A DNA stretch of 64,000 nucleotides from Escherichia phage L27. Under the pieces are notes generated by a model. That model was not told where the DNA came from. It saw nothing but the letters and a program-made list of their open reading frames with translations, and did not search any database. Every line of letters begins with the position of its first letter. The stretch's first letter is position 1. Location: the sequence record LC473039.1. One strand, given 5' to 3'. The translations under genes were made by a program, and so were the position numbers. Of the stretch, positions 32,128 through 56,628 are shown piece by piece.

Positions 32128-40122
<7,995 letters not shown>

Positions 40123-40124
40123 TA

Positions 40125-41312
40125 ATGGCGGTAGGTGAAATTCAAATTAGTGCCTTGCCTCAAGCAGCCTTACCAATTGACCTTAGTGATATCTTCCATC
40201 TTAAGCAGGGTATTGAGGATAAGAGATGTACTCTTGAGCAATTACTTGCTCCACACTCAAGCCTAAGAAATAACCCTCATGGTGTTACTAAAACACAAAT
40301 TGGTTTAGATAACGTCATCAATGCTCTTCAGTTAGTTGCTGCAAATAACTTATCAGACGTTACTAATGTAGCTCAGGCAAGAGCAAATCTACAGATTATG
40401 TCTTCAGAAGAGGTTAATAATCTTGTTCAACAGCATATTCAGGACAAGAGCAACCCACACAATACAACTAAGGCACAGGTAGGGTTGAGCAATGTCCAGA
40501 ACTGGACAACATCGAACCTTTATAACGAAGATGCAGACAAGTACGCTACAGCAAGAGCAGTAAATAACTTGTACAAGGCTGTTCAGGCTTCCTATCCAGT
40601 AGGTACTATCCATCTTTCCATGAACTCTGCAAACCCTTCTACGTATTTAATTTGTGGAGGAACTTGGGAGTTAGTTTCAAAAGGTAGGGCATTGGTTGGT
40701 TATGACTCTGACACAAGACCAGCAGGCTCTGTATTTGGTGCTTCAACTGTCACTTTGTCAGTTAATAACATGCCACAACACTCACACTCTGTGTCTCTTA
40801 GTGGTGGTGGTCATGCTCATAATGCAACTGTGTCAATTTCAGCTTTTGACTATGGAACTAAGACTACCAACTCTTTTGACTATGGAACTAAGACCACTAA
40901 CACAACTGGTAACCATAACCATGTTGGTAGTGGGTCAACAAGTTCTGCTGGTGCTCATAACCACAGATTGACCTATGAATCAGGTGGTGGTTTATCGGAA
41001 AGACCTGCAATGGTTTGGTCTTCAAGGAATGACCAATCATGGTACTCAGCAGATGCTGTCTGTGAAGTAGCTGGTGCACACACTCACTCTTTCAGTGTTA
41101 CCACTAACACAACTGGTAACCACAACCATACGGTTGGTATTGGTGCTCACAGCCACACAGTTGGTATTGGTTCACATACACACAATGGTACTGTAACAGT
41201 TTCTTCTTCTGAGCATACGCATAGCGGGAACACTAATAGTGTTGGTGGTGGACAAGCTTTCAACATTGAGCAGCCATCCTTTGTACTGTATGTATGGCAG
41301 AGAACAGCTTAA
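40125..41312 (+). CDS. tail fiber protein with His-x-His repeat tip
   Basis: tail-fiber repeats (NPHGVTKTQIGLDNV / NPHNTTKAQVGLSNV), Gly/Ser/Thr-rich HxH repeats, in-frame 27-bp tandem duplication (40846-40899). Confidence 0.75.
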   Translation: MAVGEIQISALPQAALPIDLSDIFHLKQGIEDKRCTLEQLLAPHSSLRNNPHGVTKTQIGLDNVINALQLVAANNLSDVTNVAQARANLQIMSSEEVNNLVQQHIQDKSNPHNTTKAQVGLSNVQNWTTSNLYNEDADKYATARAVNNLYKAVQASYPVGTIHLSMNSANPSTYLICGGTWELVSKGRALVGYDSDTRPAGSVFGASTVTLSVNNMPQHSHSVSLSGGGHAHNATVSISAFDYGTKTTNSFDYGTKTTNTTGNHNHVGSGSTSSAGAHNHRLTYESGGGLSERPAMVWSSRNDQSWYSADAVCEVAGAHTHSFSVTTNTTGNHNHTVGIGAHSHTVGIGSHTHNGTVTVSSSEHTHSGNTNSVGGGQAFNIEQPSFVLYVWQRTA

Positions 41313-41358
41313 TTTCTTTACAGGGGCTTTGTAGCCCCTTTTAAGAGGAAAATTTATA

Positions 41359-43719
41359 ATGGTAGATTACAAGTTGAGTGAATTAAACTCGATTGACACA
41401 ATTCGTTCAGATGACCTTCTCCATGTCAGAGTTAAAAAGAGACCTGAGATGTTGGGTGATGAAGACCGTCGAATGACCTATCAAGACTTCTTAGCATCTT
41501 TTAAACTTGAAAGATTTGTTCAGATTGCTGGTAGTACTATGACGGGTGACTTAGGGATTGTTAAGTTACTTTATGGTGGTAAGGCAGTCTTTGACCCAAC
41601 AGGCTCTTCTGAGATTACTGTTGGGGATGTTTTAAAGACTTTTAAAATTAACGCAAATGGCCTTAAACTAACTATTGCAGATGCTTCAAGGTCGGCAACT
41701 GTTTATCATACTCTGAATAAGCCAAGCCCTAATGAACTTGGGATGAGAACTAATGAAGAGAATGATGCAAGATACGCAAGGCTTGCTGTTACAAATAACT
41801 TCAGCCTTAGGCAAGCAATTGTAACTGATGGTGAGCAGTTAACCCTTAAGAAAACAACCAATGCAGGTGCTTCATATATTCAAGGTAGGGATGCTAATAA
41901 CCAGCAAACTTGGTATGTTGGACAAGGAAATGCAAGCAATACTAATGTTTATTTGTACAATCATGCTACTGGCTCAATGTTGACACTTGATGCAACAGCG
42001 TCATTTAACAAGACACTAAGAATTATGGGTCAAGTTCAACCATCTGACTTCTCTAACTTAGATGCTAGGTACTTCACCCAGACAGTAGCTAACCAGAGAT
42101 TTGCACAGTTAGCTGCTAATAACACTTTTAGTGGTGCAAACACATTCACTAATTCCGTCAGTGTGAACTCTGATGCTGCTGCTATCATTCTCAAAAATAA
42201 AACTGTTAATGATAATTTGTTCATCCTAGCAAGAGACAGTGAAAACAATAATTTGTGGTATATTGGTAAAGGTGATACAAACTCTAATGTCACATTATAT
42301 GATTATAAGGGTGGTACTGCTATTAAATTAGACTCATCTGGTGTAACATTCAATAAGGTTGTAAAAATCATTGGTCAAGTTCAACCTTCTGATTGGGCTA
42401 ACATTGACTCTAGATACATTCCAGCAGCTACTTTGAATAATCTTGCTAAACTTAATGTGGCAAACACTTTCGTGAATGTGCAGACTATCGTATCAAATAA
42501 CGAAGGTTTAGTATTAAGAAACTTGACACAGGGGCAACCACTATATATCCGTGGTGTGGATACCGCGAACGTATCGAGGTGGTGGTTAGGTGTAGGTGGT
42601 GCAAACTCTAATGTGGTAACCTTAAACAATAGTTACTCTGGTACTCAAATTGCCCTTGAACCATCAGTAATTGTTGCGAATAAGAATTTAGCCATTACTG
42701 GCCAAGTTCAACCATCTGATTGGTCTAACTTAGATGCCAGATATTACACGCAATCTACCGCAAACTCTAGGTATATGCTCGCTAATTCCTCTGGAGGTGG
42801 TACAGAGGTGGGTGATGGTGATGGTATTGCTTGGAATGCTAAAACTGGTCTGTATAATGTATATACTAAATCTGGTGGTTCAACACAACTAGTTTATCAG
42901 ATGTTTGTTGGTGGTGGCTCAACACCAACTGCACAGTTGAAGTTTAGCTACAGGAATGGTGGTTTTTGGTATAGGTCAGCAAGAGATGGGTATGGATTTG
43001 AGAAGGCTTGGGCTAAAATCTATACAGACCAAGATAAACCAACCCCTTCAGAGATTGGTGCATACACTAAAGCAGAAACTGACCAGAAAATTGCAACAGC
43101 AATTAGTGACTCCACAGACCTTAATAAAATCTATCCAGTAGGTATTGTAACGTGGTTTAACAGTAATGTTAACCCTAATACAGCACTTCCTGGGTTAACT
43201 TGGACGTACCTGAACAATGGTGTCGGTAGGACTATCAGAATCGCAGCAGCAAACGGTTCAGATGTTGCTACAACTGGTGGTTCAGATTCTGTGACGTTAG
43301 CTGTTGGTAACTTACCATCACACACTCATAGTTTCTCTGCTACCACTTCATCTTTTGATTATGGTACGAAGGGCACTAATAGTACTGGTGGTCACACACA
43401 CTCTGGTAGTGGTTCTACCAGCACAAATGGTGAGCACAGCCACTACATCGAGGCATGGAATGGTACTGGTGCAGGTGGTAATAGGACATCATCATATGCC
43501 GTAGCATATAGGGTGGGTGGGAGTAACACTAATGCGGCAGGGAACCACAGTCATACTTTCTCTTTTGGGACTAGCGGTGCTGGTGACCATTCCCACTCTG
43601 TAGGCATTGGTGCTCACAGCCACACAGTTAGTGGTAACACTGGTGGTACAGGTTCTGGTTCAGCATTTAGTGTTACTAACCAGTTCTACAAGTTAATGGC
43701 TTGGGTGAGAACTGCTTAA
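41359..43719 (+). CDS. long tail fiber protein with three internal repeats and His-x-His repeat tip
   Basis: three copies of '(I/T)GQVQPSD(F/W)(S/A)N(L/I)D(A/S)RY'; C-terminal HxH repeats and C-terminal motif shared with 40125-41312. Confidence 0.75.
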
Positions 43720-43798
43720 TCCCTTGTTGACTGATTGTTAAGATGGTGTTAATATTCTTTATGGGTATTCTCACCATCTTGGCTGATGAGGTGATTAA

Positions 43799-43996
43799 AT
43801 GCCTACAATCCTAGCAATTCTTATAAAAAATCTAGGTAGCTTCTTCTGGAAACTCATTTTATCCCTTCTAAGTGAATACATGATTGAGAAAGTGTTCTTT
43901 AGGCTTGCAAGATACCTTGCGAGTAAAACAGACACACCTATTGATGATGAGTTCGTAGATAACTTAGAAAAAGCTTTTAAGGGGGAGAATAAATGA
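43799..43996 (+). CDS. hypothetical small membrane protein (65 aa)
   Basis: hydrophobic N-terminus; ORF after fiber. Confidence 0.45.
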   Translation: MPTILAILIKNLGSFFWKLILSLLSEYMIEKVFFRLARYLASKTDTPIDDEFVDNLEKAFKGENK

Positions 43997-44364
43997 AGTG
44001 GCTAGAGGAAGCTTTTAAAAATAATATTGGTGCAATTGTAGTTGGTATTTTTAGTGTTATTGGGATGTATACCACTATGCAAGTTTCAAGTGGTAAGCAA
44101 GAAGTGTCTATCACAACAAAGCTACAGCAGTTAGATAATTATTCCAAAAGTAATTATTCAGCTATTCGTGATTTACAGTCTGATATGAGGCTACTTCAGT
44201 TAGGGATGGAGAACCAGAAAGTCCAGTTAGAGAATGTTAAGGGTGAGAACGCAAAACTTACTAAGACCCTTGATAAATTCTCTGATAGCGTGAACAATCT
44301 GGCTCAATCAGTATCAGCCCTCCAAGCTATTACTGAGAAGAACACAAAGAATACTGAAAAGTAA
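43993..44364 (+). CDS. hypothetical membrane/coiled-coil protein (123 aa)
   Basis: N-terminal TM-like segment then heptad-like region. Confidence 0.45.
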   Translation: MKWLEEAFKNNIGAIVVGIFSVIGMYTTMQVSSGKQEVSITTKLQQLDNYSKSNYSAIRDLQSDMRLLQLGMENQKVQLENVKGENAKLTKTLDKFSDSVNNLAQSVSALQAITEKNTKNTEK

Positions 44365-44371
44365 AGTTTAA

Positions 44372-44398
44372 GGCTCCCGTAAAAAAGGAGCCTTTTTT
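44372..44398. terminator. bidirectional rho-independent terminator between convergent blocks
   Basis: perfect hairpin ggctcc...ggagcc flanked by A-run and T-run. Confidence 0.8.
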
Positions 44399-44401
44399 GT
44401 T

Positions 44402-45301
44402 TTATTTACCTACTGACAAAGGTGCTTCAATCTTTCCTGCATGTTGGTAATTGTTAATACCACCAATAAAGTCACTTGCAGTGAGATGTTTTAAGTCACT
44501 TAAAGTGTTAAGTGGTACACCAATCTCAAAAGTAGGTGCATGGAACTCTTCATTGTTCATCAGTTCATAAACCTGCTTCATGTGGTTCTGATAAATCTGA
44601 GTATCTCCAAAGACACCTATCAAGTATCGTGGAGTATATCCAGTCATCTTACAAAGAACTTCCAGAATAAAACCATAAGATGCAATGTTAAACGGAAGCC
44701 CTAAAAAGGTGTCTACAGAACGCTGATACCATTGTAAGTCAACTTCACCCTCGTTAGTGATATAAATCTGAAACAGAACATGACAAGGTGCTAAAGCCAT
44801 TGAGTTTGCTGCAATATCTGCTGCATTCCAAGCATTAACAAGCATGTAACGGTCTGTGATATCACCTTTCATCTTCGTTACTAAGGTCTCTAACTGGTCT
44901 ACAACACAACCATTATGACCCTCAAAGTTTCTCCACTGAACCCCGTAGATTCTCCCACCTGCATCTTCTAACCAGTCTTGTTCAGAAGAATAATTAGAAC
45001 TCAACCAGCGTTTAAAATCATCTGACCAGATAGTCCAGCGTTCCCCATCATTTTCACCCCAAGTTCGATAACGAAGTTCACCAAGTTTATTCTCACCATT
45101 CAGGAACCATAAAGCTTCCCCAATAACTTGCCGTGTAAACACCTGTTTAGATGTTAAGAGTGGGAAACCAGTACGCATATCAAAACGAAACTGAGGTGGA
45201 GCAAATGCAGAGATAACATCTCCAGTTCGTGTAGTACGCAGTTCACCAACGGATAAAACATGGTTCAGGATATTTTTGTAACTCAAATCAGCTTGTGACA
45301 T
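44402..45301 (-). CDS. thyA: thymidylate synthase
   Basis: active-site motif 'LAPCHVLFQ' and 'DRYMLVNAWN' ThyA signature. Confidence 0.9.
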   Translation of the reverse strand: MSQADLSYKNILNHVLSVGELRTTRTGDVISAFAPPQFRFDMRTGFPLLTSKQVFTRQVIGEALWFLNGENKLGELRYRTWGENDGERWTIWSDDFKRWLSSNYSSEQDWLEDAGGRIYGVQWRNFEGHNGCVVDQLETLVTKMKGDITDRYMLVNAWNAADIAANSMALAPCHVLFQIYITNEGEVDLQWYQRSVDTFLGLPFNIASYGFILEVLCKMTGYTPRYLIGVFGDTQIYQNHMKQVYELMNNEEFHAPTFEIGVPLNTLSDLKHLTASDFIGGINNYQHAGKIEAPLSVGK

Positions 45302-45302
45302 A

Positions 45303-45848
45303 TCAAAAGTGTCCTTTTACTTGTGGAACATAAATCTCAAAGGTTGCTTTACCATCATCTGAGGGTCTTGACTGCACCTTTGCAAATATACGGCTATCAT
45401 ACAACTTATCGAAGAAGTTTTCAAAAGGTAAATACACAGTGGCCTCTTCAGTAACTTTATGGAAAACTGTATGGAAAACTACACCAGCATACGGCAAAGC
45501 ATCGACAAGAACACCTGCACCACCAATTACAAAGACATCTTCATCAATAGAGCTATCAAGATATTTCAAAAATGCTCCAAAGGTTTCTTTACTAGCCTTA
45601 GCATACATTACATCGTCTTTGTCAAAGTCTATACCCAAATATGGAACAGAGTTCGTTAAGACGAGGTTTGTACGTTCTGGTAAAGGTTTACTGCCCAGAG
45701 TCTTAAAAGTCTCATTACCCATGACTACTAAGTTGTCTTTAGTGAGTCTCTTAAACTCTTGCATATCTTGCTTATGTCGAGGCCACGGCATACCAGTTGG
45801 AGTACCAAACTCCCCATTTTCACCACTTGCAAAGATTAATTTAATCAT
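45303..45848 (-). CDS. folA: dihydrofolate reductase
   Basis: 'LVVMGNETFKTLGSKPLPERTNLVLT' matches DHFR signature; adjacent to thyA. Confidence 0.8.
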   Translation of the reverse strand: MIKLIFASGENGEFGTPTGMPWPRHKQDMQEFKRLTKDNLVVMGNETFKTLGSKPLPERTNLVLTNSVPYLGIDFDKDDVMYAKASKETFGAFLKYLDSSIDEDVFVIGGAGVLVDALPYAGVVFHTVFHKVTEEATVYLPFENFFDKLYDSRIFAKVQSRPSDDGKATFEIYVPQVKGHF

Positions 45849-46105
45849 TTTGTAAACCCTTTCTTAATGAACCAGTTGATAACATTCTTCACAGATTTAT
45901 TGCTGTGGTAGATTAAGTGTGGTGTGGGTTGGTATAAACCATAAGCCCAGAAAGCAATGATTTCATTACACCCTGTACACCTTGTACTCTCTTCAGCAAT
46001 ATGACCGTTGACTATTTCACTTACCTCACCTTGTAAGTCTGTACACCCGCAATGTGGACATCGGATAGGTGTTCCATCAGACTCATAGCAGTGTTCAATT
46101 TTCAT
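45845..46105 (-). CDS. hypothetical Zn-ribbon protein (86 aa)
   Basis: CPHCGC...CTGC paired Cys motifs. Confidence 0.5.
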   Translation of the reverse strand: MKIEHCYESDGTPIRCPHCGCTDLQGEVSEIVNGHIAEESTRCTGCNEIIAFWAYGLYQPTPHLIYHSNKSVKNVINWFIKKGFTK

Positions 46106-46621
46106 TTATTTAACCTCAAAAACTGGCTCAAGAACCAATATAAAGTCTACACAGTCATCCTCTTCATCCAGAATACCATCAAAGTTCTTAGGAACGAAGT
46201 CGAAGAGGCTCATAACAAAACAGTCAGAAGTGACCTTGATAGTTCCTCCCATGTTCTCTACAGTTAACACTGTACGACTTTCTTTTACCTCCCTCAGAAG
46301 ATTACCCACAAAGTCATCTAAGAAGTACTTCATCAGTGACTTAAAACCTTTAGGGTAATCTGTACCAGAGTATGTTTCAATCTGAGGCACAAGCTTAACA
46401 TTTATACTAGTCTTTGTTAAGAACGTTTTAGAGAACATACTATCAGGTAGCTTACAAACAGTCTTTCCAGTACCTTCATGTTCAATCTCAACAAAACCAG
46501 CTTCATCGCCACATGTAACTATTTTAAAAGATGCTTCATTAACATACTGTGAAGCCATAAACTTCTTAAGCATCTCTTTAAGGAAATCTGCATGAGCATC
46601 TTGTAAGTAGATATCAATCAT
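46106..46621 (-). CDS. hypothetical protein (171 aa)
   Basis: ORF. Confidence 0.55.
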   Translation of the reverse strand: MIDIYLQDAHADFLKEMLKKFMASQYVNEASFKIVTCGDEAGFVEIEHEGTGKTVCKLPDSMFSKTFLTKTSINVKLVPQIETYSGTDYPKGFKSLMKYFLDDFVGNLLREVKESRTVLTVENMGGTIKVTSDCFVMSLFDFVPKNFDGILDEEDDCVDFILVLEPVFEVK

Positions 46622-46634
46622 AGTTAATCACCTA

Positions 46635-46994
46635 TTATGGGAACAGACATTTGATGTCATCGTTTTTGAAAACAAAACTTGTGTAGTTGTGACCATCAAC
46701 ATCCAACCAAACAGCCTGAACATCTACACCATCAAGATTCTGGTAAAGCTCTTTGATGAAGTGGTCTTTTACAATCTGACTGCTAGTGGTTTCCAGCTTA
46801 ATGTTCGAGATTGCTGAGCCTACAGCCATATAGCCCATGACACGTTTCTTCTCAGTATGCTTAATCTTACCATCTTTGTAAGCCATAATGAGATTGGAGA
46901 GAATCTTTACACCATAATACTTTTCAAGGTGAGTAGGGACACCATAAAAGCCTAATGCGAAGTTTTCAGAGTGGATAATGTTTTCACGTTTCAT
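46635..46994 (-). CDS. hypothetical protein (119 aa)
   Basis: ORF. Confidence 0.5.
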   Translation of the reverse strand: MKRENIIHSENFALGFYGVPTHLEKYYGVKILSNLIMAYKDGKIKHTEKKRVMGYMAVGSAISNIKLETTSSQIVKDHFIKELYQNLDGVDVQAVWLDVDGHNYTSFVFKNDDIKCLFP

Positions 46995-46995
46995 A

Positions 46996-47325
46996 TTAAT
47001 CTGCCAACCTTAAATTGAAATTAACACCAAATTTTTCACATACTTCCAACATATACTCAAGGGAAACATTCCCGGTGAGGTGGATTATGTTGGATACACG
47101 AGCCTGAGAGATACCACAAATTTTAGCAACTTGCTCTTGAGAAAGACCTCTGGATTTAATCTCTCTCTTAAAACGATGTGCAACGAAGTCTCTCATTTCG
47201 TCTACATCCATTGGACAAATATAACTCTCCATTTCAGCCTCTCTATCAGCCTCCCAATCATCTTGTGGGGCATAAGGGTCAAAAACCTCATTCATCTTTC
47301 TTCTTCCGTTTGCGTGAAGTGTCAA
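46996..47325 (-). CDS. putative HTH DNA-binding protein (109 aa)
   Basis: 'EQVAKICGISQARVSNIIH' helix-turn-helix-like segment. Confidence 0.5.
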   Translation of the reverse strand: MTLHANGRRKMNEVFDPYAPQDDWEADREAEMESYICPMDVDEMRDFVAHRFKREIKSRGLSQEQVAKICGISQARVSNIIHLTGNVSLEYMLEVCEKFGVNFNLRLAD

Positions 47326-47500
47326 TCAGTGAATCTATGTTTGTAGCCCTAACCTTTTCACGTTCATCGTTAAGATAATCATCAAGAGCCTTTTCAATCT
47401 GTGAATCATCTTGACAGATAACTGTAAAGACTGTAAAGCCGTCTGTATCGTCAATTATCTTACCATAACCGCTTCTGGGATGTAACTTTTTAAGAGCCAT
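47288..47500 (-). CDS. hypothetical protein (70 aa)
   Basis: ORF. Confidence 0.4.
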   Translation of the reverse strand: MALKKLHPRSGYGKIIDDTDGFTVFTVICQDDSQIEKALDDYLNDEREKVRATNIDSLIDTSRKRKKKDE

Positions 47501-47501
47501 A

Positions 47502-47885
47502 TCAAATACCTGTGCAGCTTCTGTTTTCTAAGAAATATTCAACACCGTACATAGCTTTTTGCATCAAATCTTCTTTAAACTGGATACGATGGTTAAGCAT
47601 AGCCTGTACATCAATATCATCATGGTGCTTCTCTTTAATATTTGCAGATTGCAGGAAATACTCTGCAAGAACGCGATATTGATAGTCAGTCACCTTATCA
47701 GTCATCTCTGTCAAAGACTCTTCAGAGATTGGTTTAAGTAACTCACCATTAGCCAGAGCAACACCTTTAACAATCTGGCAAGTGTCTTCTGGAACACCTG
47801 ATAAGTCCACATTTGGAAGTTCTGTTGCATTGACTGGTAAATTCATTGCCATAACCATTGCAGCAGCTAATAAAATCTTTTTCAT
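47502..47885 (-). CDS. hypothetical secreted/periplasmic protein (127 aa)
   Basis: N-terminal signal-peptide-like segment MKKILLAAAMVMAMNLPVNA. Confidence 0.55.
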   Translation of the reverse strand: MKKILLAAAMVMAMNLPVNATELPNVDLSGVPEDTCQIVKGVALANGELLKPISEESLTEMTDKVTDYQYRVLAEYFLQSANIKEKHHDDIDVQAMLNHRIQFKEDLMQKAMYGVEYFLENRSCTGI

Positions 47886-48004
47886 AATGACCTCAAAGTT
47901 ATATTAAATTTTGTATTACGTTGAGTATAAAAATAAGCTATAACACCTGAATTGTCAACAGATTTTATAGCTTATTTGGCAGATTTTTTATAAGGCTACT
48001 GCCA

Positions 48005-48075
48005 TCCTTCCATACCAAACCACACCACACCAAACCCTGCCAAACCAGAGCCTACTAGACCATACCAAACCAAAC
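48005..48075. repeat. low-complexity C/A-rich tract (CCAAACC-type repeats)
   Basis: 'ccataccaaaccacaccacaccaaaccctgccaaaccagagcc...ccataccaaaccaaac' in a 440-bp intergenic gap. Confidence 0.6.
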
Positions 48076-48168
48076 ATCACTTAAAAACCCTTTTAAAAGA
48101 CTCTTAAGTGATGCTGGTGAGTACCCGTTGGTTTATGCTGCTCAGTATACTCACCAAATTTTCTATGT

Positions 48169-48324
48169 CAACAACTTTTATATAAAAGCCCTGATAACTA
48201 AATGTGTTACAAAACAGAAGATTGTGAACAAGAAACCCATTGCAAAGGGTGTGTTCAAAAGCTTACTTGTGATGTAAGACAATACAAAGACGACTAATAC
48301 AAATAGGATGATTGTGCTTAACAT
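48169..48324 (-). CDS. possible small hydrophobic protein (51 aa)
   Basis: ATG 3 nt after ligase stop; highly hydrophobic; below track threshold; no clear RBS. Confidence 0.3.
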
Positions 48325-48327
48325 AGT

Positions 48328-49428
48328 TTACTCATAATCCCTAATAACTAGCCCAACAGGGAACTGTAAAGACCCTTTACGAGTCATCTTCTGGAACTGA
48401 ACCGTTAAAGGTTTCCCGATAAACTCTTCAGGATGCTCAGCAAGATACTGTTTCTTCTCATGAGTAGTCTTCCATGAGACATCTACAAAGACATTAGGAA
48501 GAGTCTCTACAACGAACTTGCCATGACCACGTTTATCGGTCTTTACACCAGTCACTTTAAACTCTTCAGTGTGCATCTTCTTGTGCTTAATCAAGAAGTA
48601 TGAACGGTGACAACACTCGTAGAAAGATTCTTCAGAGATTGAGCGGTACATTGCACCTTCAAACTTAGCTTCAACCCACTTATCATGAGCTTCATCAAAC
48701 TCTTCCCAAGAGTTAACACGACGAGACTTGACAGGAACAACTTTACATCCGTCTCTAAAGTCATTCAATGGTGAAGTCTCAATAATATCTCTACGCTCAG
48801 GCCACGTCTTAGTGCTGTCACAGATATCGTACCAGTAGAACTGGAGTAGATGTCGGTCTGGATTGTCAGCATTCTTAATCATAGATACAATATCTTCTAA
48901 GTCCCAACCATGAGCATAAATCTCTCCATCAAAGTCTTCAACTTGTGGATGTAATTTAAGCAACAAAAGTAAGTCTGGGATTAGTTCTGCTGGAACGTTG
49001 TAAACAGTATTCTCACGAGAATAAGCTGTGAAACTGACTGAATCAGCATCTCTTGAAATTCTACAACGTACACCATCAAGTTTTGGTTGAGCATCAGCAG
49101 GGAATATCAAATACTTTGCATGACTAACCTTTGCAGCATCATGAGCAAGCTGTACACCTACCTTCTCAGTATTCTGTGCAGACTCTTTCGTGTAAGCATA
49201 GCCTTTACGGTCAACTTGCTTCTTGTACTTAGCAGCAACTTCAAAGAGAGCTTGCTGTTCAGCATTACGCTCATTCTTTTTGCCGATGTTTTTAGGTTCT
49301 GCTGTATACTCTTCAAACATCATCTTGCCATTTTCTTTACCATAGGTTGTAATAACTTTGTCACCTACAGCAGTACATGACCAGACGTTAAAAGAGCCAT
49401 CTTTATTTTGTTTGTATAGAATTGTCAT
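48328..49428 (-). CDS. ATP-dependent DNA ligase
   Basis: adenylation motif I 'PKLDGVRC' (KxDG). Confidence 0.85.
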   Translation of the reverse strand: MTILYKQNKDGSFNVWSCTAVGDKVITTYGKENGKMMFEEYTAEPKNIGKKNERNAEQQALFEVAAKYKKQVDRKGYAYTKESAQNTEKVGVQLAHDAAKVSHAKYLIFPADAQPKLDGVRCRISRDADSVSFTAYSRENTVYNVPAELIPDLLLLLKLHPQVEDFDGEIYAHGWDLEDIVSMIKNADNPDRHLLQFYWYDICDSTKTWPERRDIIETSPLNDFRDGCKVVPVKSRRVNSWEEFDEAHDKWVEAKFEGAMYRSISEESFYECCHRSYFLIKHKKMHTEEFKVTGVKTDKRGHGKFVVETLPNVFVDVSWKTTHEKKQYLAEHPEEFIGKPLTVQFQKMTRKGSLQFPVGLVIRDYE

Positions 49429-49507
49429 TTATTTCTAGCCTCACAAGCTATGCAGCCTTTTGAATAGAATGAGTGCCAAGCGCACCCACCAAAATCTTCT
49501 TCAATGA

Positions 49508-49756
49508 TTAAATTGAATTTATTGCTTTCATGTATCTTTCGTAATAGTCTAAACATTTTTTATCCATATCAGCTATATACTGTTCATAGTCATCCTCTAT
49601 CCGTGGTTTCACAAAGGATGCTTTTGCCTTGTAATAGTACTCCACGTATGAGTAATTATTCATCCAAGATTTGAATAATAATATATTTTCAGGACGCCTC
49701 GGAGGAATCTTCAAACTGTTTTCATATAGGGTTTTCATCTCTTTAGTTATCTTCAT
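49508..49756 (-). CDS. hypothetical protein (82 aa)
   Basis: ORF. Confidence 0.45.
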   Translation of the reverse strand: MKITKEMKTLYENSLKIPPRRPENILLFKSWMNNYSYVEYYYKAKASFVKPRIEDDYEQYIADMDKKCLDYYERYMKAINSI

Positions 49757-49959
49757 TTTCTCTTACCACCAATCTCTACGTCAATAACTTGAACATCGCC
49801 AGCAACATCAAACTTATGAATGATGCTTTCCACAGTGTAAGTCCAACCATCAATGCGAACCAACTCACCTTCTCGTGGGACGATTGGATTACGTTGAGCT
49901 ATGGTTGTAGTGGAGTGAACAACATCATAACGATAGATATAGTTTACTAATACTTCCAT
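49753..49959 (-). CDS. hypothetical protein (68 aa)
   Basis: ATG at 49959 with GAGG RBS; longer track ORF would overlap the upstream gene. Confidence 0.45.
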   Translation of the reverse strand: MEVLVNYIYRYDVVHSTTTIAQRNPIVPREGELVRIDGWTYTVESIIHKFDVAGDVQVIDVEIGGKRK

Positions 49960-49969
49960 CGTGAAAACC

Positions 49970-50227
49970 TCACTCAATAACCGTGGTATGTGATTGACCA
50001 TTTTTGCCATAGCTATAAGATGTTGTTGTTTGAGAGTTGGGGCATCTGACAACAACAATATCCCTGCTTATAGCGTCACCATTGAGTTTGTAGATTTTGC
50101 AGTCTTGCATCTCTGGAGGGAGGCTGTAAGAAGCATCTTTGTTTTCATAAGAAGGGTTGCAGCCAGCCAGAAAAATTACTCCAAGTGCAACCATTGCTTT
50201 CACACAACTCTTAACCTTATTGTTCAC
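49970..50227 (-). CDS. putative lipoprotein (85 aa)
   Basis: signal peptide with lipobox-like LAGC; GTG start with GAGAGG RBS. Confidence 0.55.
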   Translation of the reverse strand: MNNKVKSCVKAMVALGVIFLAGCNPSYENKDASYSLPPEMQDCKIYKLNGDAISRDIVVVRCPNSQTTTSYSYGKNGQSHTTVIE

Positions 50228-50359
50228 GATAGTCTACCTCTCTGTATGTTTTTAAATAGTGAGTGATGAGTTCTGGTAATTCACTACGTTTAACGTTTGA
50301 ACGAAGAAGTGTCCAGTCAAAACCTTTACCAACCCTTCCCCAGAGACTGTACATTTTCT

Positions 50360-50593
50360 TCATAGCAACTCCAGAATATCAATACGTTCACCCTTAAGGA
50401 CTCCGGTGCGGTCTCTTGCAATCTTACCGTCAACGATAAGGATATGCGCGACCTTTAAAGCCTCACGATTAAAACCTTTTAAGAACTTACTAGGCATCAC
50501 CACAATAAGCATCTCTTGAATCAACTCTGGAGTATAGCAATTGTCGTGAAGTTGCTGAATAACGTCTGCAAGTGTCATTTTTGATGTCTCCAA
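50360..50593 (-). CDS. hypothetical protein (77 aa)
   Basis: ORF. Confidence 0.45.
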   Translation of the reverse strand: METSKMTLADVIQQLHDNCYTPELIQEMLIVVMPSKFLKGFNREALKVAHILIVDGKIARDRTGVLKGERIDILELL

Positions 50594-50784
50594 TACTCAA
50601 TATCAATAAGTTCTTGTGCAATGCTTTTCAGATTACCTTTCAAGAAAACCTTCTCAGAACCTGAAAGAGATGAATTATCGATTAGCCTGTTCATTCTCTC
50701 AAACAACTTCTGCTTACGGTTCTTGATAGTTTCCTTTGAAGCACCTTTCATCATCGCTGCATGGGTTCTTCCACGGTGGCTCAT
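50575..50784 (-). CDS. hypothetical basic protein (69 aa)
   Basis: ORF. Confidence 0.4.
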   Translation of the reverse strand: MSHRGRTHAAMMKGASKETIKNRKQKLFERMNRLIDNSSLSGSEKVFLKGNLKSIAQELIDIEYWRHQK

Positions 50785-50835
50785 AAGTCCTCCTATACAA
50801 GATATAGTATAAGGTACTCTTCCCTGAGCACCTTG

Positions 50836-51369
50836 TCAACTTAGTTTTGCAAACTCTCCGTGGAGTTTAATAGCAGCTTCACAGTAAGCTTTATGGGCTT
50901 CTTCAGGTGTGTCATGGTGACCTAAAAACATCTTCTTACCTTTATAACTTATCTGTGCGACCCACTTACCAGACTTCTTCTTAAGACTTACACCCTTGTA
51001 CCCAGATTTATTGGTGACTGGTTTACCTTTATTCCAAGCACTTTGAAAATCATCTGCTTCCCTTAAGTTTACAATCCTGTTGTCAAGTGAGTCTCCGTTG
51101 ATATGGTCAATGATACCTTTTGGCATCTTGCCATACACGTAAAGCCATGCGAGTCTGTGTGCTTTATGTGCTTTCTTGTCAAAATAGATACTAATCTGTT
51201 TATGACCACTTGAATCAGTCTGGATATTACCTGCCACCTTTCCTGCATAATTACTGTTAAAAACACTAACAGCTCTTGATTTACCTTCTCTACGAAGCCA
51301 AGTAAAGACCCCTGTTTCGGGGTCATAGTGCAGCAGCTCCTTTAAACGTTTTTGTAAAATTAAATCCAT
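50836..51369 (-). CDS. HNH homing endonuclease with AP2-like DNA-binding domain
   Basis: 'IDHINGDSLDNRIVNL' HNH_3-type motif and 'YKGVS...KWVAQISYKGKKMFLGHH' AP2-like region; immediately downstream of intron-containing polymerase gene. Confidence 0.75.
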   Translation of the reverse strand: MDLILQKRLKELLHYDPETGVFTWLRREGKSRAVSVFNSNYAGKVAGNIQTDSSGHKQISIYFDKKAHKAHRLAWLYVYGKMPKGIIDHINGDSLDNRIVNLREADDFQSAWNKGKPVTNKSGYKGVSLKKKSGKWVAQISYKGKKMFLGHHDTPEEAHKAYCEAAIKLHGEFAKLS

Positions 51370-51372
51370 TAA

Positions 51373-51929
51373 TCAATGTACCTCATACCAGCTCTTACCA
51401 ACCTTTGCTGTACCAGTTACAAGTGTTTCTTTCCTCAAACCTAAGTTTTTTGAAGCTTGTCCATACATCCAGTCAGCAATTGCTTTCATATCCTGTGTCA
51501 TACCCTCTGGACATTCCCAACTATTTTCATCGTGATATGCCAGAAGTAACCTTGCTCCGATAGCTGGTTTTCGAGCATTCAGTTTTGTCAGGCCATCTTC
51601 ACAGGCTTTTCTTGCTGCTAGGTTGATGGCCTCATTCTGAATCTGTGCTTCCGAACTCATCAGGAGGTAGTTCAGTAGTTTATGTGGAGATTTGCACCAT
51701 ATCCATGCTCCAGCGACCCTGATATAACCACCTTTAGCAATTGAAGAATTCTTCCCAAAAACCTCTTCCAGAGCCTTTTTAGACGCCTTAAAATCGGCTT
51801 CTAAGCTATCAAGTAACTTCTTAATCTTTGGAAGACGCATATAGTAAGTTTGTTTAGTCAATGCACCTTCTTCCGTAGATGATGCTTTGATAGTTTTTGC
51901 AAACTTCTCGTCACCTGCACCGAACAATA
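51373..51929 (-). CDS. DNA polymerase (family A, T7-like), exon 2
   Basis: contains motif B continuation 'FGAGDEK' and motif C 'YHDENSWECPEG'; joins in frame to exon 1 after removal of intron. Confidence 0.8.
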
Positions 51930-52197
51930 CATCTGGTCAATACACTCGCAAGGTGTACCAGTTCTCTTATGAACTTCTCCGCATTTCTACGGAGTGTCGG
52001 ACTATATCACGTAGTAGTAATACTACCGTTGCACTTGGGAATGGTCATTAGCTTACCACCCTACTCTACTCAGTTCATACATTAAGTACGCTTTTCGATA
52101 GTCTCTGAACGTTCCTCTTAAGAGGCTTCGCTGCTGATTACCATATCTTTACAGACTTAGGCTTCCAGCAATTCACAACGTTTTACATGCGCCACTG
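51930..52197 (-). mobile_element. group I intron (268 nt, ORF-less) in DNA polymerase gene
   Basis: conserved P (tgctggaagc), Q (aatcagcag), R (gttcagagactatc), S (gatatagtcc) elements in correct order; P1 with U.G at 5' splice site; terminal G before exon 2. Confidence 0.8.
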
Positions 52198-54340
52198 ACG
52201 CATAGATACCATTCTTAGCCTTCTTACGACCTTTTGTAATCTCGTGAAGAAGTTCCTCATCCTGTGTCTCCCTACAACGAACAATATCTTCTTCCTTGTT
52301 CAGACCAAAGTAAATACTGTTCAGTGTATGTGCATCAGTCCCTGTGTAGACTTCATAGAGGTCGTTCTCAGCATCATAACGAAGATACTTGTCAGTTTCT
52401 GGATTAAGATACTTATCGAGATGCTTGCAATAGTATCTGCCATCCTCTTGCTTAGTGAACTCTACTGACTCTTTACCCTCAGTTACTGCTTTGGTGAAGT
52501 CTTCATCACCCATAAAGTTACAAAGAAGAACAAGCTGTGCAGAGTTCTGGTCAACTGAAACGATGTTAGTCCCCTCCTCACAAATCCACACCTCCCTCAT
52601 AGGTGCTCCATAGACAGCAGCACCAGACGGTACGTTTACAATACCATACTGTGTCATACGTCCAGTTGAAGTACCGAACACCATCGCACCAGCACTAAGG
52701 CGACCATCAGGACGAATCTGGTTCAACCAACCTTTTTCATCATCCTTTGAGTTCTCAATAGTTCTGCGTCGGTGCATCAAAGTGTAGTACTTAGCAATCT
52801 TCTGTCCAAGCTCACCTTCAATCGTATCATAAGATGATTCAGTAAGTTTTGGTGAAGTACGGATTAAGCAAGGCTCAAGCAAATCTGTGTACTTCTTCAC
52901 AGACCAGTTATGCTCAATGTACTGTACACCTTCATGTTCAACATAACTCAAACCACACCGCTCAACCATTTCCTGCCACTTAGGATGCTTTGTAATCATC
53001 TTTTTATTGTCTTTGAAACGACAAACTTTGACAGGGCGACCATCTGAGTCTTTCTTGTAGTTCCAGTCATCTGGAATCCAACCAACTGATTTCAAGTAGT
53101 CTTTAACAACTGCTACCTGAGTCATACGAGAAACTTCGAACTCAATTGGTGTATATGGTGCATCAATCAAACCTGTGTAGCGACTTGACTCAAGTTCAAA
53201 GTGGTTAACAACGTGACTGTTATAGTACTTCACAGTTTTGACTGTTTTTACTGGTTTCCAGTCTTTGCATTTCTTACCAATCTTTGCGTTCAACTCATTG
53301 CAAATTGCACGAGCATCCTTCATTGCTACAAAACCCTCCTTGTACTCTTCACCAGTTACAGAGTTGGTTGGCGTATAGCAATTTCTCTTTTCAATGTTAA
53401 AAATCTTTGTAGTTGGCTTACCAAATGGCTTGATTTCGTATGTCTGCATCTCACCGTTACGCACCTGCTGACGATACTTTGTCTTAGGATACTTGGTAAT
53501 TCTCTTCAGTCCATCTACATGACCAAATGTTTCAACATACTCATTCCAAGCTTTTGCAAACTCTTCTCCAGTAACTTTACCTTTGGTCTTAATAGTTGGA
53601 GGTAGATGTGGTTCAACCTCTGAAGCAAGCTCATTAGTCAACTTGTCAAGTTCCTTCACATGGAACTCCATAAGCTCCTTATCAGCTTTCCAACCATTAA
53701 TAGCTTGTTGACTCATCCAGAAAGATGTTTCTTTAGCTCGCATGTAGGTTTCATAAGTGTCTATGCCACACTTCTTAAGCTTGAGATACTCATTATCAAG
53801 TGCCCGTTTAGTTTTGGCGTTAATACGGATATCTTCTACAACACGAGTGAAGATTTCTGCATTCCACACACCCCAATACTCAATCTCTGGCTTACGAACA
53901 CCAACACGAGCACCCCATGCAGCCAAACCATGAGCACCTTTATAACCTTTTGGAGTTGGTCTATCCATCCACTGAACACGAGACTGGATAAGAGAATCCT
54001 GAAAGAAATTACTCCACGGTTTACACTTTGGATTATCAAAGTTCCATAAATCCGGTGCAATGTGATTGAAAACCCACCAGTCATAACCGAGACCGTTATG
54101 GATGCAAAGACGTTTTGCCTTTAACGCAAACTCAACACCTTCACGCAAACCCCCCTTAATGTACTTGGTATACTTGTGACCGAGGATAGGCTCATCTGTA
54201 AAGACCCATACAGGTGGCTCTTCATCGTCAGATTTATAGTCTGCGAAAGCCATTACGTGCACTTTAGTGAACTCAAGGAGTAAACCATCAGTTTCTGTAT
54301 CACCAACCAAATGTAAGTTTTTAAAATCTACGTTTTCCAT
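52198..54340 (-). CDS. DNA polymerase (family A, T7-like), exon 1
   Basis: 3'-5' exo motif 'DTETDGL', T7 gene 5-like segments, motif B start 'KKAKNGIYA'; track ORF continues 13 codons into the intron to an in-frame stop. Confidence 0.8.
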
Positions 54341-54402
54341 TTTTTACTCCCTCTAAAACCATTAACCTCATACATTACTGCAAAAAATTATAAAAAGCAA
54401 GT

Positions 54403-54433
54403 TGACAATGTACTTGACAAGGTGTTAATCTTT
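54403..54433 (+). promoter_or_regulatory. divergent-region promoter motif with tandem TTGACA
   Basis: 'gttgacaatgtacttgacaaggtgttaatc' resembles 12459-12490. Confidence 0.4.
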
Positions 54434-54598
54434 GCGAAGTGGGTTTTTACTTAAAAGGTTACTTAACAGTTTAACTATACAGATACTTTAAAACTCTTAA
54501 AAGATTATTTAATAGCTTTTAAAAAGCTTTAAAGTATAACGTATAGAATACGTTAAGATAAAAGATTAAAACTTAATAGTTACTTAAAAGAGGCTTAC

Positions 54599-55021
54599 AT
54601 GCAGAAAATGTTTGTTCACCCAGACATAGCTGACTTTGTTAGAGCTTTGCAGAAGTTGGAAGAACTTGACATTGCTGCTCAACGGGAATATGCTCACCAT
54701 CACAGGAGAATGGTTGATATACAACATGAAATAGAGTTGTCTGAAAACTATGAAGATGACTTAAAATGCTCTGTATTTGAGCATATGAAAGATGTTGCTA
54801 CAGCTAGACGTAAAGCCAAAGACACAGTTGCTTTACTAGATTCTCTTAAAAAGAGGTTGCAAAGTGGTACAGACCTGTGTAATCTAGCGTCACTGATTAA
54901 CGATGTTGAAACTTCTTGGGATAGGCACTATTATCCACGTTCTGAAAAGACACTTGACTTTTCTTCATCAGAAAACTTAAAATGTTCTAGAAAGAAACTT
55001 AACCAACTGAGAGAGAAATAA
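54599..55021 (+). CDS. hypothetical protein (140 aa)
   Basis: ORF. Confidence 0.55.
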   Translation: MQKMFVHPDIADFVRALQKLEELDIAAQREYAHHHRRMVDIQHEIELSENYEDDLKCSVFEHMKDVATARRKAKDTVALLDSLKKRLQSGTDLCNLASLINDVETSWDRHYYPRSEKTLDFSSSENLKCSRKKLNQLREK

Positions 55022-55022
55022 T

Positions 55023-55823
55023 ATGAATATTGATGTAGAAAAGATGCTTGAAGAAAAAGGTATTGACGAAGCGTTCTTAATCAATGCCGTAGAAAGCATG
55101 GCTATGATTCTTCGTGGGAACAACTACACAGAACAGTTTATGCCTGCAAGTTATAACCTACCTGAAGACAAGTCTGATAACGGTGCTTTTGCAGAACAGG
55201 TTAACATGATGCTTTGCGACAAAACACTTGCTCTGGCATCTATTGCGGTTGGTGTTGATGCTCTTGCAGAGTTCATTTTTTATGAGATGCAGAGAAATGA
55301 CTATATCAGGATGTCAGACGAAGATAAGGAACTGTTGCTGACTAAGGACACTGATTTCATTATTGATACACTTATCTCATCAACAAGTGCTGTTATGGCT
55401 GTTCTTGAGAAGCGTATGGAAGAGAAACTTTCACGATATGAAAAACTTGAATGGGGCGTAGAAGAATTAAGCCCACGAATCAAAGAAATTATCCAGCAAA
55501 CTAAAGAGTCTTTGGAAGAAGCTGTTGAAAATGACTCTGTAGCTGATATAGAACCTCTTCAGGTGAAAGTTGCACTGATGATTCCAGCTATCTCTACGAT
55601 GATGAATATTGTTGCACTAATCCAACTTTCACAGATGATGGGTGTGAGTATTGAGTTCATTGAAGAGATGACTGGTGGCGTCAGTATGCAAGCAATCAAT
55701 GATGTTTTGGTGAACATTGGTGCTTCAATCATTGAAGAGAAACTACGCATTAACTTCGGTGATGATTTTGTGAAGCAAATCTCAGCTATGGCTGAAAAAG
55801 AGTCTGCTGAGCAACTGCACTAA
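55023..55823 (+). CDS. hypothetical protein (266 aa)
   Basis: ORF. Confidence 0.55.
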   Translation: MNIDVEKMLEEKGIDEAFLINAVESMAMILRGNNYTEQFMPASYNLPEDKSDNGAFAEQVNMMLCDKTLALASIAVGVDALAEFIFYEMQRNDYIRMSDEDKELLLTKDTDFIIDTLISSTSAVMAVLEKRMEEKLSRYEKLEWGVEELSPRIKEIIQQTKESLEEAVENDSVADIEPLQVKVALMIPAISTMMNIVALIQLSQMMGVSIEFIEEMTGGVSMQAINDVLVNIGASIIEEKLRINFGDDFVKQISAMAEKESAEQLH

Positions 55824-55842
55824 GTCTTTATAAATCTTACAA

Positions 55843-55865
55843 GCCTCCTTAGTTGGGGGCTTTTT
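55843..55865 (+). terminator. rho-independent terminator
   Basis: gcctcc...gggggc hairpin followed by TTTTT; near-identical hairpin occurs inverted at 5629-5646. Confidence 0.65.
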
Positions 55866-55884
55866 AGTAATTAAGGGAGATAAA

Positions 55885-56628
55885 ATGAGTAATATTATTG
55901 CATTCACTGGAAAGGCACGTTCTGGAAAAGACACCTCGTGTTCTATTGTGAAGAACATCTTAGAGGATGAGTATGGCTACAATGTTGTAGTAATGGCCTA
56001 TGCAGACAACCTTAAGCTATCTGCATCAAAGATATTTGACCTGACTTGGAATGACCTGTATGGTGAAACTAAAGAGACTCCACAGGTTTTTGATTTATCA
56101 TATCCTGAACTGATGTTCAAAGTTACAGAAGCTATGGAGTTTACCTTCAAAGACGAACGTTACCATATGGATTTTAAGCTTATGTCAGAATTGACAGGAC
56201 GCTTAATCATGGAGCTTAAGAAGGTTGCTAAACCGACTCTATTAACACGTCTGGGATTTAGTAAAAAGTATAAATTCTCATCAAGGCAAATTCAACAGAT
56301 TTGGGGTACTGAAGTTATCCGTAAAGTTATGGGTGACAAATTCTGGGCTAAAGACCTCGAAAAACGAATGGCAAATTTCTTTGACGTTTGCTCACTTAGA
56401 AATCAAGAAGGTGTTGTTTTAATCAGTGACTTAAGGTTTGACTCTGAAGCTGAGTGGTTGAGCAGATTTGCACACCAAATTGTTGAAGTAAAAAGAGACA
56501 ATGTGGATAAGGTTTCATCACATGTTTCAGAAAATGGGATTTCTACCAAATATGCGCGTGACATTATCCATAATAATGGTACTCTTGCAGACCTTGAAAG
56601 CAAGTTAAGAGCTATCCTGAAAATTTAA
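55885..56628 (+). CDS. deoxynucleoside monophosphate kinase
   Basis: N-terminal P-loop 'IIAFTGKARSGKDT' resembles T4 gp1 as recalled. Confidence 0.7.
   Translation: MSNIIAFTGKARSGKDTSCSIVKNILEDEYGYNVVVMAYADNLKLSASKIFDLTWNDLYGETKETPQVFDLSYPELMFKVTEAMEFTFKDERYHMDFKLMSELTGRLIMELKKVAKPTLLTRLGFSKKYKFSSRQIQQIWGTEVIRKVMGDKFWAKDLEKRMANFFDVCSLRNQEGVVLISDLRFDSEAEWLSRFAHQIVEVKRDNVDKVSSHVSENGISTKYARDIIHNNGTLADLESKLRAILKI

Follow-up and report, generated by a model that had tools for sequence, protein, structure and literature searches.

What kind of element fills the gap between the ATP-dependent DNA ligase gene and the next minus-strand gene of Escherichia phage L27 (sequence record LC473039.1)? In the 64,000-nucleotide stretch analyzed here (the window), which sequence comparison assigns to a Felix O1-like phage (Felixounavirus), a preliminary description had noted this gap, lying as it described before the gene at 47885..47502, and a CCAAACC-type tract within it. 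The tract is indeed present at 48076..48012 on the minus strand, and nowhere else in the window. It is almost certainly a vrRNA gene, that is, a guide of the type II (SUSP1-clade) VIPR (Viral Interference Programmable Repeat) system, and its code matches vipr, the gene of the partner protein, in sister phages. The most economical reading, to which we give slightly better than an even chance, is that this guide-only locus would act in trans against the vipr gene of a rival phage.

The repeat tract and its transcription unit

The tract had been described as C/A-rich and of low complexity; the tract itself stands, but its regularity is a strict 5-nucleotide (nt) period with three constrained positions (GGY, here G1, G2, and Y3) and two free ones (NN, here N4 and N5) rather than loose low complexity. 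On the minus strand it reads TGTTT GGTTT GGTAT GGTCT AGTAG GCTCT GGTTT GGCAG GGTTT GGTGT GGTGT GGTTT GGTAT, which gives the NN code TT TT AT CT AG CT TT AG TT GT GT TT AT. When both strands of the entire window were scanned at a period of 5, 'GT' fell in register at 10 of 12 places in the tract, the plus-strand maximum was 5, and, among the matches listed, the minus-strand positions scoring at least 6 all lay inside the tract. A looser D-G-Y motif reaches at least 8 of 10 at the tract alone in the 64 kb. Such regularity far exceeds chance expectation, and the window shows it nowhere else. Eleven of the 13 units fit D-G-Y with a G at G2, the exceptions or near-exceptions being unit 5 (AGT) and unit 6 (GCT).

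An alignment of relatives over the gap displays nearly invariant flanks around a tract that is scrambled except for G-G-T every 5 bases. We found 76 arrays (59 unique) at 27 loci of relatives; among the unique ones the length is divisible by 5 in 57 of 59, and 11 units is the commonest size. Across 704 units of relatives the position weights are 0.78 for G1, 0.98 for G2, and 0.88 (T) and 0.12 (C) for Y3, while N4 and N5 carry about 0.1 bit each; neighboring units are identical in only 44 of 647 pairs. The window tract holds five different NN pairs (TT, AT, CT, AG, and GT) in 13 units, which is not the makeup of a microsatellite, and the true microsatellites recovered from the IMG/VR database in the scan described below look quite different. 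The suggestion that the tract is slippage-prone, with its proposed comparison of tract length among isolates, is right in general terms: arrays have 9 to 19 units in relatives, and the window copy has one GGTGT unit more than its sister guides.

A 30-amino-acid (aa) Trp- and Gly-rich open reading frame (ORF) at 48080..47988 (minus strand) is the array read in one frame; it is not conserved, as each phage has arrays of its own. Rfam covariance models run over 47000-49000 returned chance-level matches only (best in the tract, E of 6.9). Our literature search on Felixounavirus repeats and pentanucleotide repeats found nothing relevant, and the PhageMaP paper on Bas63 does not discuss the locus.

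The elements of the candidate RNA gene, and the promoter that overlaps its end, are as follows.

48144..48171, minus strand: promoter P1, sigma-70 type, TTGACA-16 nt-TATACT, 11 of 12 consensus matches
48076..48112, minus strand: leader hairpin AUCACUUAAG...UUAAGUGAU, a 16-bp hairpin by folding, directly 5′ of the repeats
48012..48076, minus strand: vrRNA repeat region of 13 GGY-NN pentamers (YNNGG in the register of the preprints cited below), from period-5 scans and the position weights of relatives
47978..48011, minus strand: invariable 3′ tail GGAAGGAUGGCAGUAGCCUUAUAAAAAAUCUGCC, 34 nt, H-type pseudoknot, from covariation read by eye and folding
47924..47977, minus strand: terminator-like A/U-rich hairpin (arms 47977-47965 and 47943-47931) with a U run
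47958-47953 (−35 box, in the hairpin loop) and 47935-47930 (−10 box), minus strand: promoter P2 of the next gene, 10 of 12 consensus matches, an annotated promoter in the ASO1A record

On the minus strand the order is thus P1, leader hairpin, repeats, 34-nt tail, and A/U-rich hairpin with its U run. P1 has the best promoter score in 47000-49500, is invariant in our alignment of relatives (A1), and is nearly invariant across all Felix-like loci; we infer that it is active, and the primary vrRNA transcript is predicted to start near 48139-48136. The leader hairpin is kept in all loci as a module ahead of the arrays (the pattern used to find leaders in relatives also admits those ending in TTAAGTAA). 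Its equivalent carries the label 'terminator' in the ASO1A record.

The tail pseudoknot consists of stem S1, AAGG (48009-48006) with CCUU (47995-47992), and stem S2, GGCAG (48003-47999) with CUGCC (47982-47978), the latter recovered by folding. The window tail belongs to the commonest class in relatives (54 copies), and three other classes keep both stems via compensatory changes, as read by eye: the stem variants of the classes compared are AAGG/CCTT, GTGG/CCAC, and GTAG/CTAC; GGCAG/CTGCC and GGTAG/CTACC; and AGTCTCA/TGAGACT and AATCGGA/TCCGATT. The terminator-like hairpin has a folding energy of −17.8 kcal/mol (z of −4.45), equalled by none of 200 shuffles, and was missed by a simple terminator scan because its stem has too few G-C pairs. 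The −35 box of P2 lies inside the loop of this hairpin, after the vrRNA tail, and the DNA at 47924-47977 may end one transcript and start the next. As a whole, the window locus consists of the P1 and leader of a first guide, one repeat region, and the tail class of a last guide.

Vipr and a guide locus without it

The partner protein emerged from arrays without prior knowledge of VIPR. IMG/VR was scanned for (GGTNN)7GGT, and the ORFs around the arrays were clustered into families; the loci and counts are those among the matches listed. Trivial microsatellites apart, the scan yielded several heterogeneous arrays on each of dozens of unrelated phage contigs. One protein family of about 190 aa adjoins arrays at 42 of the 63 unrelated loci and lies on the array strand in 43 of 44 cases, mostly immediately upstream. 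The family has no Pfam domain and bears only 'hypothetical' names, and a 195-aa Felix protein is one of its members. Its profile matches a single solved structure, PDB entry 36pp ('SUSP1 Vipr protein'), with an E value of 1.9e-81; the Felix-clade member matches with an E value of 1.2e-127 and about five differences over 195 aligned residues (∼97% identity). Our Vipr alignment (A2) shows no variation, or conservation of at least 90%, at residues H17, K33, R39, K82, G87, R138, and R179, and these seven are the GGY/DNA contacts named for SUSP1 Vipr in the preprint. The structural model has a pLDDT of 93.6. The sequence match to the PDB entry settles the identity of the relatives' 195-aa protein as Vipr.

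In two 2026 preprints, VIPR is proposed as an RNA-guided system older than CRISPR that serves virus-virus conflicts (bioRxiv 10.64898/2026.04.26.720920, 10.64898/2026.04.26.720927). According to their main text, the model phage SUSP1 is Felix O1-like and Vipr is a small RAMP protein, while the vrRNA comprises 9 to 16 YNNGG repeats, with GGY conserved and NN hypervariable, and an invariable tail, which in the SUSP1 clade is a pseudoknot seen by cryo-EM. One Vipr protomer binds each repeat and sequesters the three GGY bases; the NN pairs read double-stranded DNA, with every third target base skipped, and the filament represses transcription (bioRxiv 10.64898/2026.04.26.720920, 10.64898/2026.04.26.720927).

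The identification of the tract as a vrRNA gene follows from its position weights, divisibility by 5, 9- to 19-unit range, and tail pseudoknot, which fit this published definition. Two guesses of the preliminary description, part of an untranslated RNA and a protein-binding array, therefore proved apt in general terms: the tract would be the repeat region of a guide RNA, with one Vipr protomer per pentamer as published for SUSP1. The GGY-NN code and its DNA-targeting role, P1, the pseudoknot tail, and the terminator-like hairpin lay outside that description. The window guide shares with the SUSP1 vrRNAs its phage genus, its locus between the ligase gene and a gene of 127 aa, GGY-NN repeats numbering within the 9- to 16-unit range, and a pseudoknot tail; decoded by their NNx pairing rule, it finds a match in vipr. 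Unlike them, it is a single guide with no vipr or vap1 in cis, matches a sister-phage vipr rather than a satellite, is read (as guide family A, below) in a register that skips codon position 1 rather than the wobble base, and carries two noncanonical GGY units and three unmatched 3′ units. Among the unrelated viral contigs of the IMG/VR scan, one has 16 tandem VIPR-like arrays (L085), another 19 arrays of up to 47 units (L136), and a third a single array of 42 units (L090); the 9 to 16 units cited for SUSP1-clade and P. fulva-clade guides are far fewer.

No Vipr homolog was found in the 64-kb window by hidden Markov model and tblastn searches. The complete genomes of phages pSJ21 (87,273 bp) and DE7 (86,130 bp) also lack Vipr (best E values of 0.43 and 0.32, against 3e-50 for the positive control), and each has exactly one array, in the same one-guide layout as the window. 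In all, vipr is present in 118 Felix-like GenBank records, and about half of the Felixounaviruses have vipr (195 aa) and vap1 between guides at this same locus. The window vrRNA has no vipr and vap gene beside it; on sequence grounds the RNA counts as a vrRNA, and the locus is not a complete VIPR system. A guide-only locus coding against vipr is apparently a variant that we did not find described, of a kind of element known since 2026; vipr-less phages with guides go unmentioned in the main text of the preprints (bioRxiv 10.64898/2026.04.26.720920, 10.64898/2026.04.26.720927). Such loci would have escaped the preprint because its searches began from Vipr proteins and were confined, for the SUSP1 clade, to the E. 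coli pangenome.

Guide code, target, and competing explanations

We decoded every Felix-clade guide by the published rule (NN pairs, one base skipped) and compared it with all sequences assembled for this study. The window guide, a member of family A, matches vipr nt 362-391 (peptide FIYAKSVKIG) at 19 of 20 positions over units 1 to 10. With TC at unit 2, its sister guides in LNA1 and DE7 match at 20/20 (overall 20/24, 83%); those in D1-2 and RPN213 match at 18/20. Family B guides, found in nine single-array phages (L018, pSJ21, SP22, Ro111lw, Pr103Blw, Meda, S.Kent 1-2-1, finno, and mio), match vipr nt 469-498 (ITKEELLMVL) at 20/20 with the wobble bases skipped (overall 20/22, 91%). Family C (L004) matches the antisense strand of vipr near nt 37-62 at 16/16 (overall 16/18, 89%).

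For each of the three families, none of 4,000 unit-order shuffles and none of 4,000 random NN draws reached the observed local-run score, while the orphan guide of ASO1A, taken as a control, scored at noise level. The total-match score of the window guide is only modestly significant (34 of 3,000 shuffles). Across IMG/VR, the 10-unit pattern of family A occurs at 9 places, 8 of them in vipr, and the 12 places that carry the family B pattern all lie in vipr. The family A pattern has three matches, in unrelated taxa, across 596 Gb of representative prokaryote genomes, where we estimate about two by chance. The full 13-unit pattern has no exact match in IMG/VR and no match with up to 3 mismatches in the window. 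When 76 unique guides were scanned against all compared sequences, the matches scoring at least 16 were all anti-vipr save one artifact, that of L007, which falls on array and tail sequence. A match of the L004 guide outside vipr (16/18) was set aside, its total score not being significant. None of the guides of vipr-carrying loci scores on vipr or vap1, and there are no self-targets in the window, DE7, or pSJ21.

Signs of continuing selection appear on both sides of the pairing. Two family B variants each match particular vipr alleles at 20/20, CT.CT those whose Leu codon is CTG-type and CT.TT those whose Leu codon is TTG, and vipr alleles with K-to-R changes escape both. Within family B, 11 of the 33 GGY columns are variable versus 2 of the 22 NN columns, the reverse of the usual hypervariability, and the GGY changes fall mostly at G1 and Y3, only within the bases that the motif allows. 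Orphan guides keep G2 (97 to 98%) and Y3 (100%) as well as guides elsewhere do. On the target side, 15 vipr alleles have 14 segregating sites at codon positions 1 and 2, and 8 of these fall within the pair of 30-nt stretches at which family B and family C guides are directed; nt 25-81 and 457-504 hold the only clusters of such sites in the gene (e.g., L011 1093-1680). A guide that ignores wobble bases would select exactly such non-wobble escape clusters. An arms race would be visible here, in guide variants that match particular vipr alleles and in non-wobble changes of vipr clustered exactly at two of the three target sites.

We hypothesize the following course of events. The transcript would start at P1, run through the leader hairpin, the 13 GGY-NN repeats, and the pseudoknot tail, and end at the terminator-like hairpin; by analogy with SUSP1, it may be trimmed to about 100 nt. 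The guide would act in trans: a co-infecting, vipr-carrying sister phage would supply Vipr, which would load onto the orphan vrRNA. Each RNA would thereby soak up about a dozen of the rival's Vipr protomers, and the loaded protein would be steered onto the rival's own vipr gene. We infer transcription, loading by a foreign Vipr, and an effect on the rival from sequence comparisons. With vipr as the target, self-targeting is avoided, as the gene is necessarily present in any supplier of Vipr and absent from the orphan carrier; no other sequence of any size distinguishes the two in this way. In its wider form, that Felix O1-like phages which lost or never had vipr keep a guide that turns a sister's Vipr on its own gene, a counterweapon in an arms race, we hold the proposal to be about evenly balanced between true and false.

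Several observations weigh against a trans-acting guide. The window copy matches vipr at 19 of 26 NN positions overall (73%), under the 80% NN match that the preprint uses as its threshold for natural targets (bioRxiv 10.64898/2026.04.26.720920, 10.64898/2026.04.26.720927). Its last three units have no vipr match, its unit 2 has changed from TC to TT and mismatches all 15 vipr alleles sampled, it carries a duplicated unit, and unit 6 has a C at G2, a position that is G in 98% elsewhere, yet this change is kept across family A. The window copy is the weakest of its family and may be drifting. Family A is also easy to escape because it pairs with codon positions 2 and 3, the wobble base not being skipped. 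The single orphan guides of ASO1A (L001), JLBYU28 (L170), and FSL SP-010 (L172) and those of short-form two-array loci (L002, L003, L012, L016, L021, and L025) have no vipr match, and neither these three nor the guides of two-array vipr-less loci have a detectable target in vipr, vap1, or the other sequences compared here. G1 is other than G in 39% of units of single orphan guides versus 21% elsewhere, which could reflect relaxed constraint, and the phages sampled within one guide family are not independent. About 23 kb of the phage genome lies outside the window. It is hard to see what is gained by silencing the nonessential vipr if the filament does the rival no further harm, and the published natural targets of the SUSP1 clade are mostly a satellite phage, not sister phages (bioRxiv 10.64898/2026.04.26.720920, 10.64898/2026.04.26.720927).

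The main rival to a trans-acting guide is a relic, in which vipr and vap1 were lost together with the remaining guides through recombination between the repeated leader and tail modules; the vrRNA that survived would be decaying without a partner, and its vipr match would predate the deletion. The window does join the promoter and leader of a first guide to the tail class of a last guide, as a module deletion would, and the blemishes of its copy (the unit 2 mismatch, the duplicated unit, the AGT and GCT units, and the 73% overall match) and the more frequent degeneracy of G1 in single orphan guides point the same way. Such a history, however, requires a self-targeting ancestor, of which there is no sign: no guide of a sampled vipr-carrying locus targets vipr or vap1, and the preprint, having checked P. 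fulva and types III and V, reports no self-targeting there. Three unrelated guides at three vipr sites, found in vipr-less phages only, argue against decay as well, as do the conservation of NN columns while GGY drifts within its allowed bases, the tracking of target alleles by guide variants, and a promoter, tail, G2, and Y3 that are still intact. We consider the relic unlikely, while taking it seriously.

Less probable still is a pure decoy, in which the orphan vrRNA is a sponge for about 12 of the rival's Vipr protomers per RNA and the NN code is irrelevant. The strong conserved promoter, the intact Vipr-binding scaffold (G2, Y3, and tail), and the three orphan guides with no identifiable vipr match would all suit a sponge. 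A sponge could carry any code, but the vipr matches of three families lie far outside chance expectation, and the NN columns of family B are conserved.

We think it very improbable that this is a VIPR guide of the ordinary kind, directed in truth at a satellite or other uncollected element, supplied with Vipr from elsewhere (the genome beyond the window, or some resident element), and matching vipr only incidentally. Of the 20 SUSP1-clade guides for which the preprint could identify a target, 18 match a satellite in E. coli genomes (bioRxiv 10.64898/2026.04.26.720920, 10.64898/2026.04.26.720927); our gapped-pattern search covered IMG/VR and representative prokaryote genomes rather than the E. 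coli pangenome, and the 23 kb beyond the window could hold a vipr gene. Against this, the vipr matches cannot be put down to chance, no Vipr is encoded in the complete DE7 and pSJ21 genomes, and the guide has no full-length exact match in IMG/VR and chance-level matches only in the representative prokaryotes.

That the tract encodes no guide RNA at all, being instead a slippage microsatellite, G-quadruplex or R-loop DNA, an opposite-strand rut site, or a TRAP-like array for a ring protein, is scarcely credible: a nontemplate strand that is G-rich and follows a strong promoter, a triplet core recurring every 5 nt much as in TRAP sites, the C-rich, G-poor opposite strand of rut-site length, and the occurrence of identical adjacent units (44/647) are outweighed by heterogeneous units with G2 and Y3 conserved and NN free, which is the published Vipr contact pattern, by the co-occurrence of arrays with Vipr genes in unrelated phages, by a tail that covaries, and by an NN code with a specific target. 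TRAP-like sites, two-tetrad G-quadruplexes, and an R-loop replication origin were dropped as candidates because the arrays co-occur with the one family that matches SUSP1 Vipr, and a Rho rut site, primase or Chi-like sites, pairing with tRNA 3′ ends, and a Trp-rich leader peptide were dropped on the same ground. The Bacillus TRAP leaders do resemble the arrays in their period of 5 (triplets set 2 nt apart), their number of units (about 11), and their binding of one subunit per triplet; they differ in their (G/U)AG triplets and 11-mer ring, where the vrRNA has GGY, a helical RAMP filament, and informative spacers.

For a guide that acts in trans there are precedents in part. Phage-borne orphan CRISPR arrays, mini-arrays, and solitary repeat units exploit or jam host Cas proteins. 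The likeness is that a mobile element carries the RNA part only, redirecting or blocking the effector of another; it is functional only, since the protein family and RNA architecture are others, the code here is noncontiguous, and the supplier would be a co-infecting phage. Within VIPR, the vrRNAs of the satellites that SUSP1-clade VIPR targets and the anti-VIPR guides of the P. fulva clade, both described in the preprint, are precedents for guides carried by opponents of Vipr phages and for VIPR loci as targets. The satellites, however, direct their guides at other satellites, and it is prophages encoding Vipr that carry the anti-VIPR guides, whereas the window represents a full-size lytic phage with no Vipr and one guide aimed at vipr itself.

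If a trans-acting role is true, about half of the Felix O1 relatives, which include therapeutic and typing phages, would join VIPR conflicts without encoding the protein, and VIPR would have a natural RNA-only countermeasure. The natural variants could also reveal its tolerance to 3′ mismatches, noncanonical GGY units, and non-wobble registers. 'Empty' gaps with low-complexity tracts at this locus deserve annotation as vrRNA genes.

The small reading frame and the wider locus

The genes around the tract are all on the minus strand. The features that accompany the guide are as follows.

49428..48328, minus strand: ATP-dependent DNA ligase, 366 aa
48178..48324, minus strand: small ORF of 48 aa plus stop, with two hydrophobic segments (MLSTIILFVLVVFVLSYITSKLLNTPFAMGFLFTIFCFVTHLVIRAFI); phrog_22006, full length, E value of 4.5e-26
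between the 48-aa ORF and the 127-aa gene, minus strand: noncoding stretch, 292 nt
47885..47502, minus strand: gene of 127 aa with a signal peptide
46996-47325, minus strand: helix-turn-helix protein of 109 aa; Pfam HTH_3, E value of 6e-10; phrog_1373

The preliminary description had placed a 51-codon hydrophobic ORF at the start of the gap. Its existence and its ATG 3 nt past the ligase stop are confirmed, while the codon count and the end at 48169 give way to 48 aa at 48324..48178. The further idea of a membrane peptide gains from the PHROG match and from the relatives, in which all 14 distinct alleles are intact at 147 nt and variation is of a coding type, with variable sites at codon positions 1, 2, and 3 numbering 15, 6, and 20 and pairwise codon differences of 699 synonymous versus 531 nonsynonymous. 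The ORF has no Pfam match. It is present in 20 loci and scored absent in 29, including the closest sisters of the window guide; 28 of the 29 absences are a clean gap of about 150 bp, with P1 within 6 to 7 nt of the ligase stop, and the remaining one (L172) keeps a 157-nt gap with no intact ORF. Most likely, the product is a real but dispensable two-helix membrane peptide, a neighbor of the guide RNA that is unrelated to it. Most GenBank records leave it unannotated.

The locus region is matched by 257 GenBank phage records, all with an identity of at most about 95%, and 111 of them have the short form of the locus. Some relatives have two to six tracts with conserved hairpin modules between them, and in many an additional pair of genes (195 aa and 146 aa) separates the arrays. 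The 109-aa helix-turn-helix gene sits two genes downstream of the guide, and records of relatives call its homolog a transcriptional regulator.

The best long match to window positions 40000-56000 is MG065664.1, 'Campylobacter phage A132', at 93% identity, and a 'Staphylococcus' phage record is also among the Felix-like matches; the host labels of both look wrong for Felixounaviruses. The vrRNA is unannotated in all GenBank records looked at for this locus, one of which has a 'repeat_region' and one a 'terminator'. In some records (L168, L170, L171, and L003), short plus-strand coding sequences for a 'hypothetical protein' are annotated over the leader or small-ORF region.

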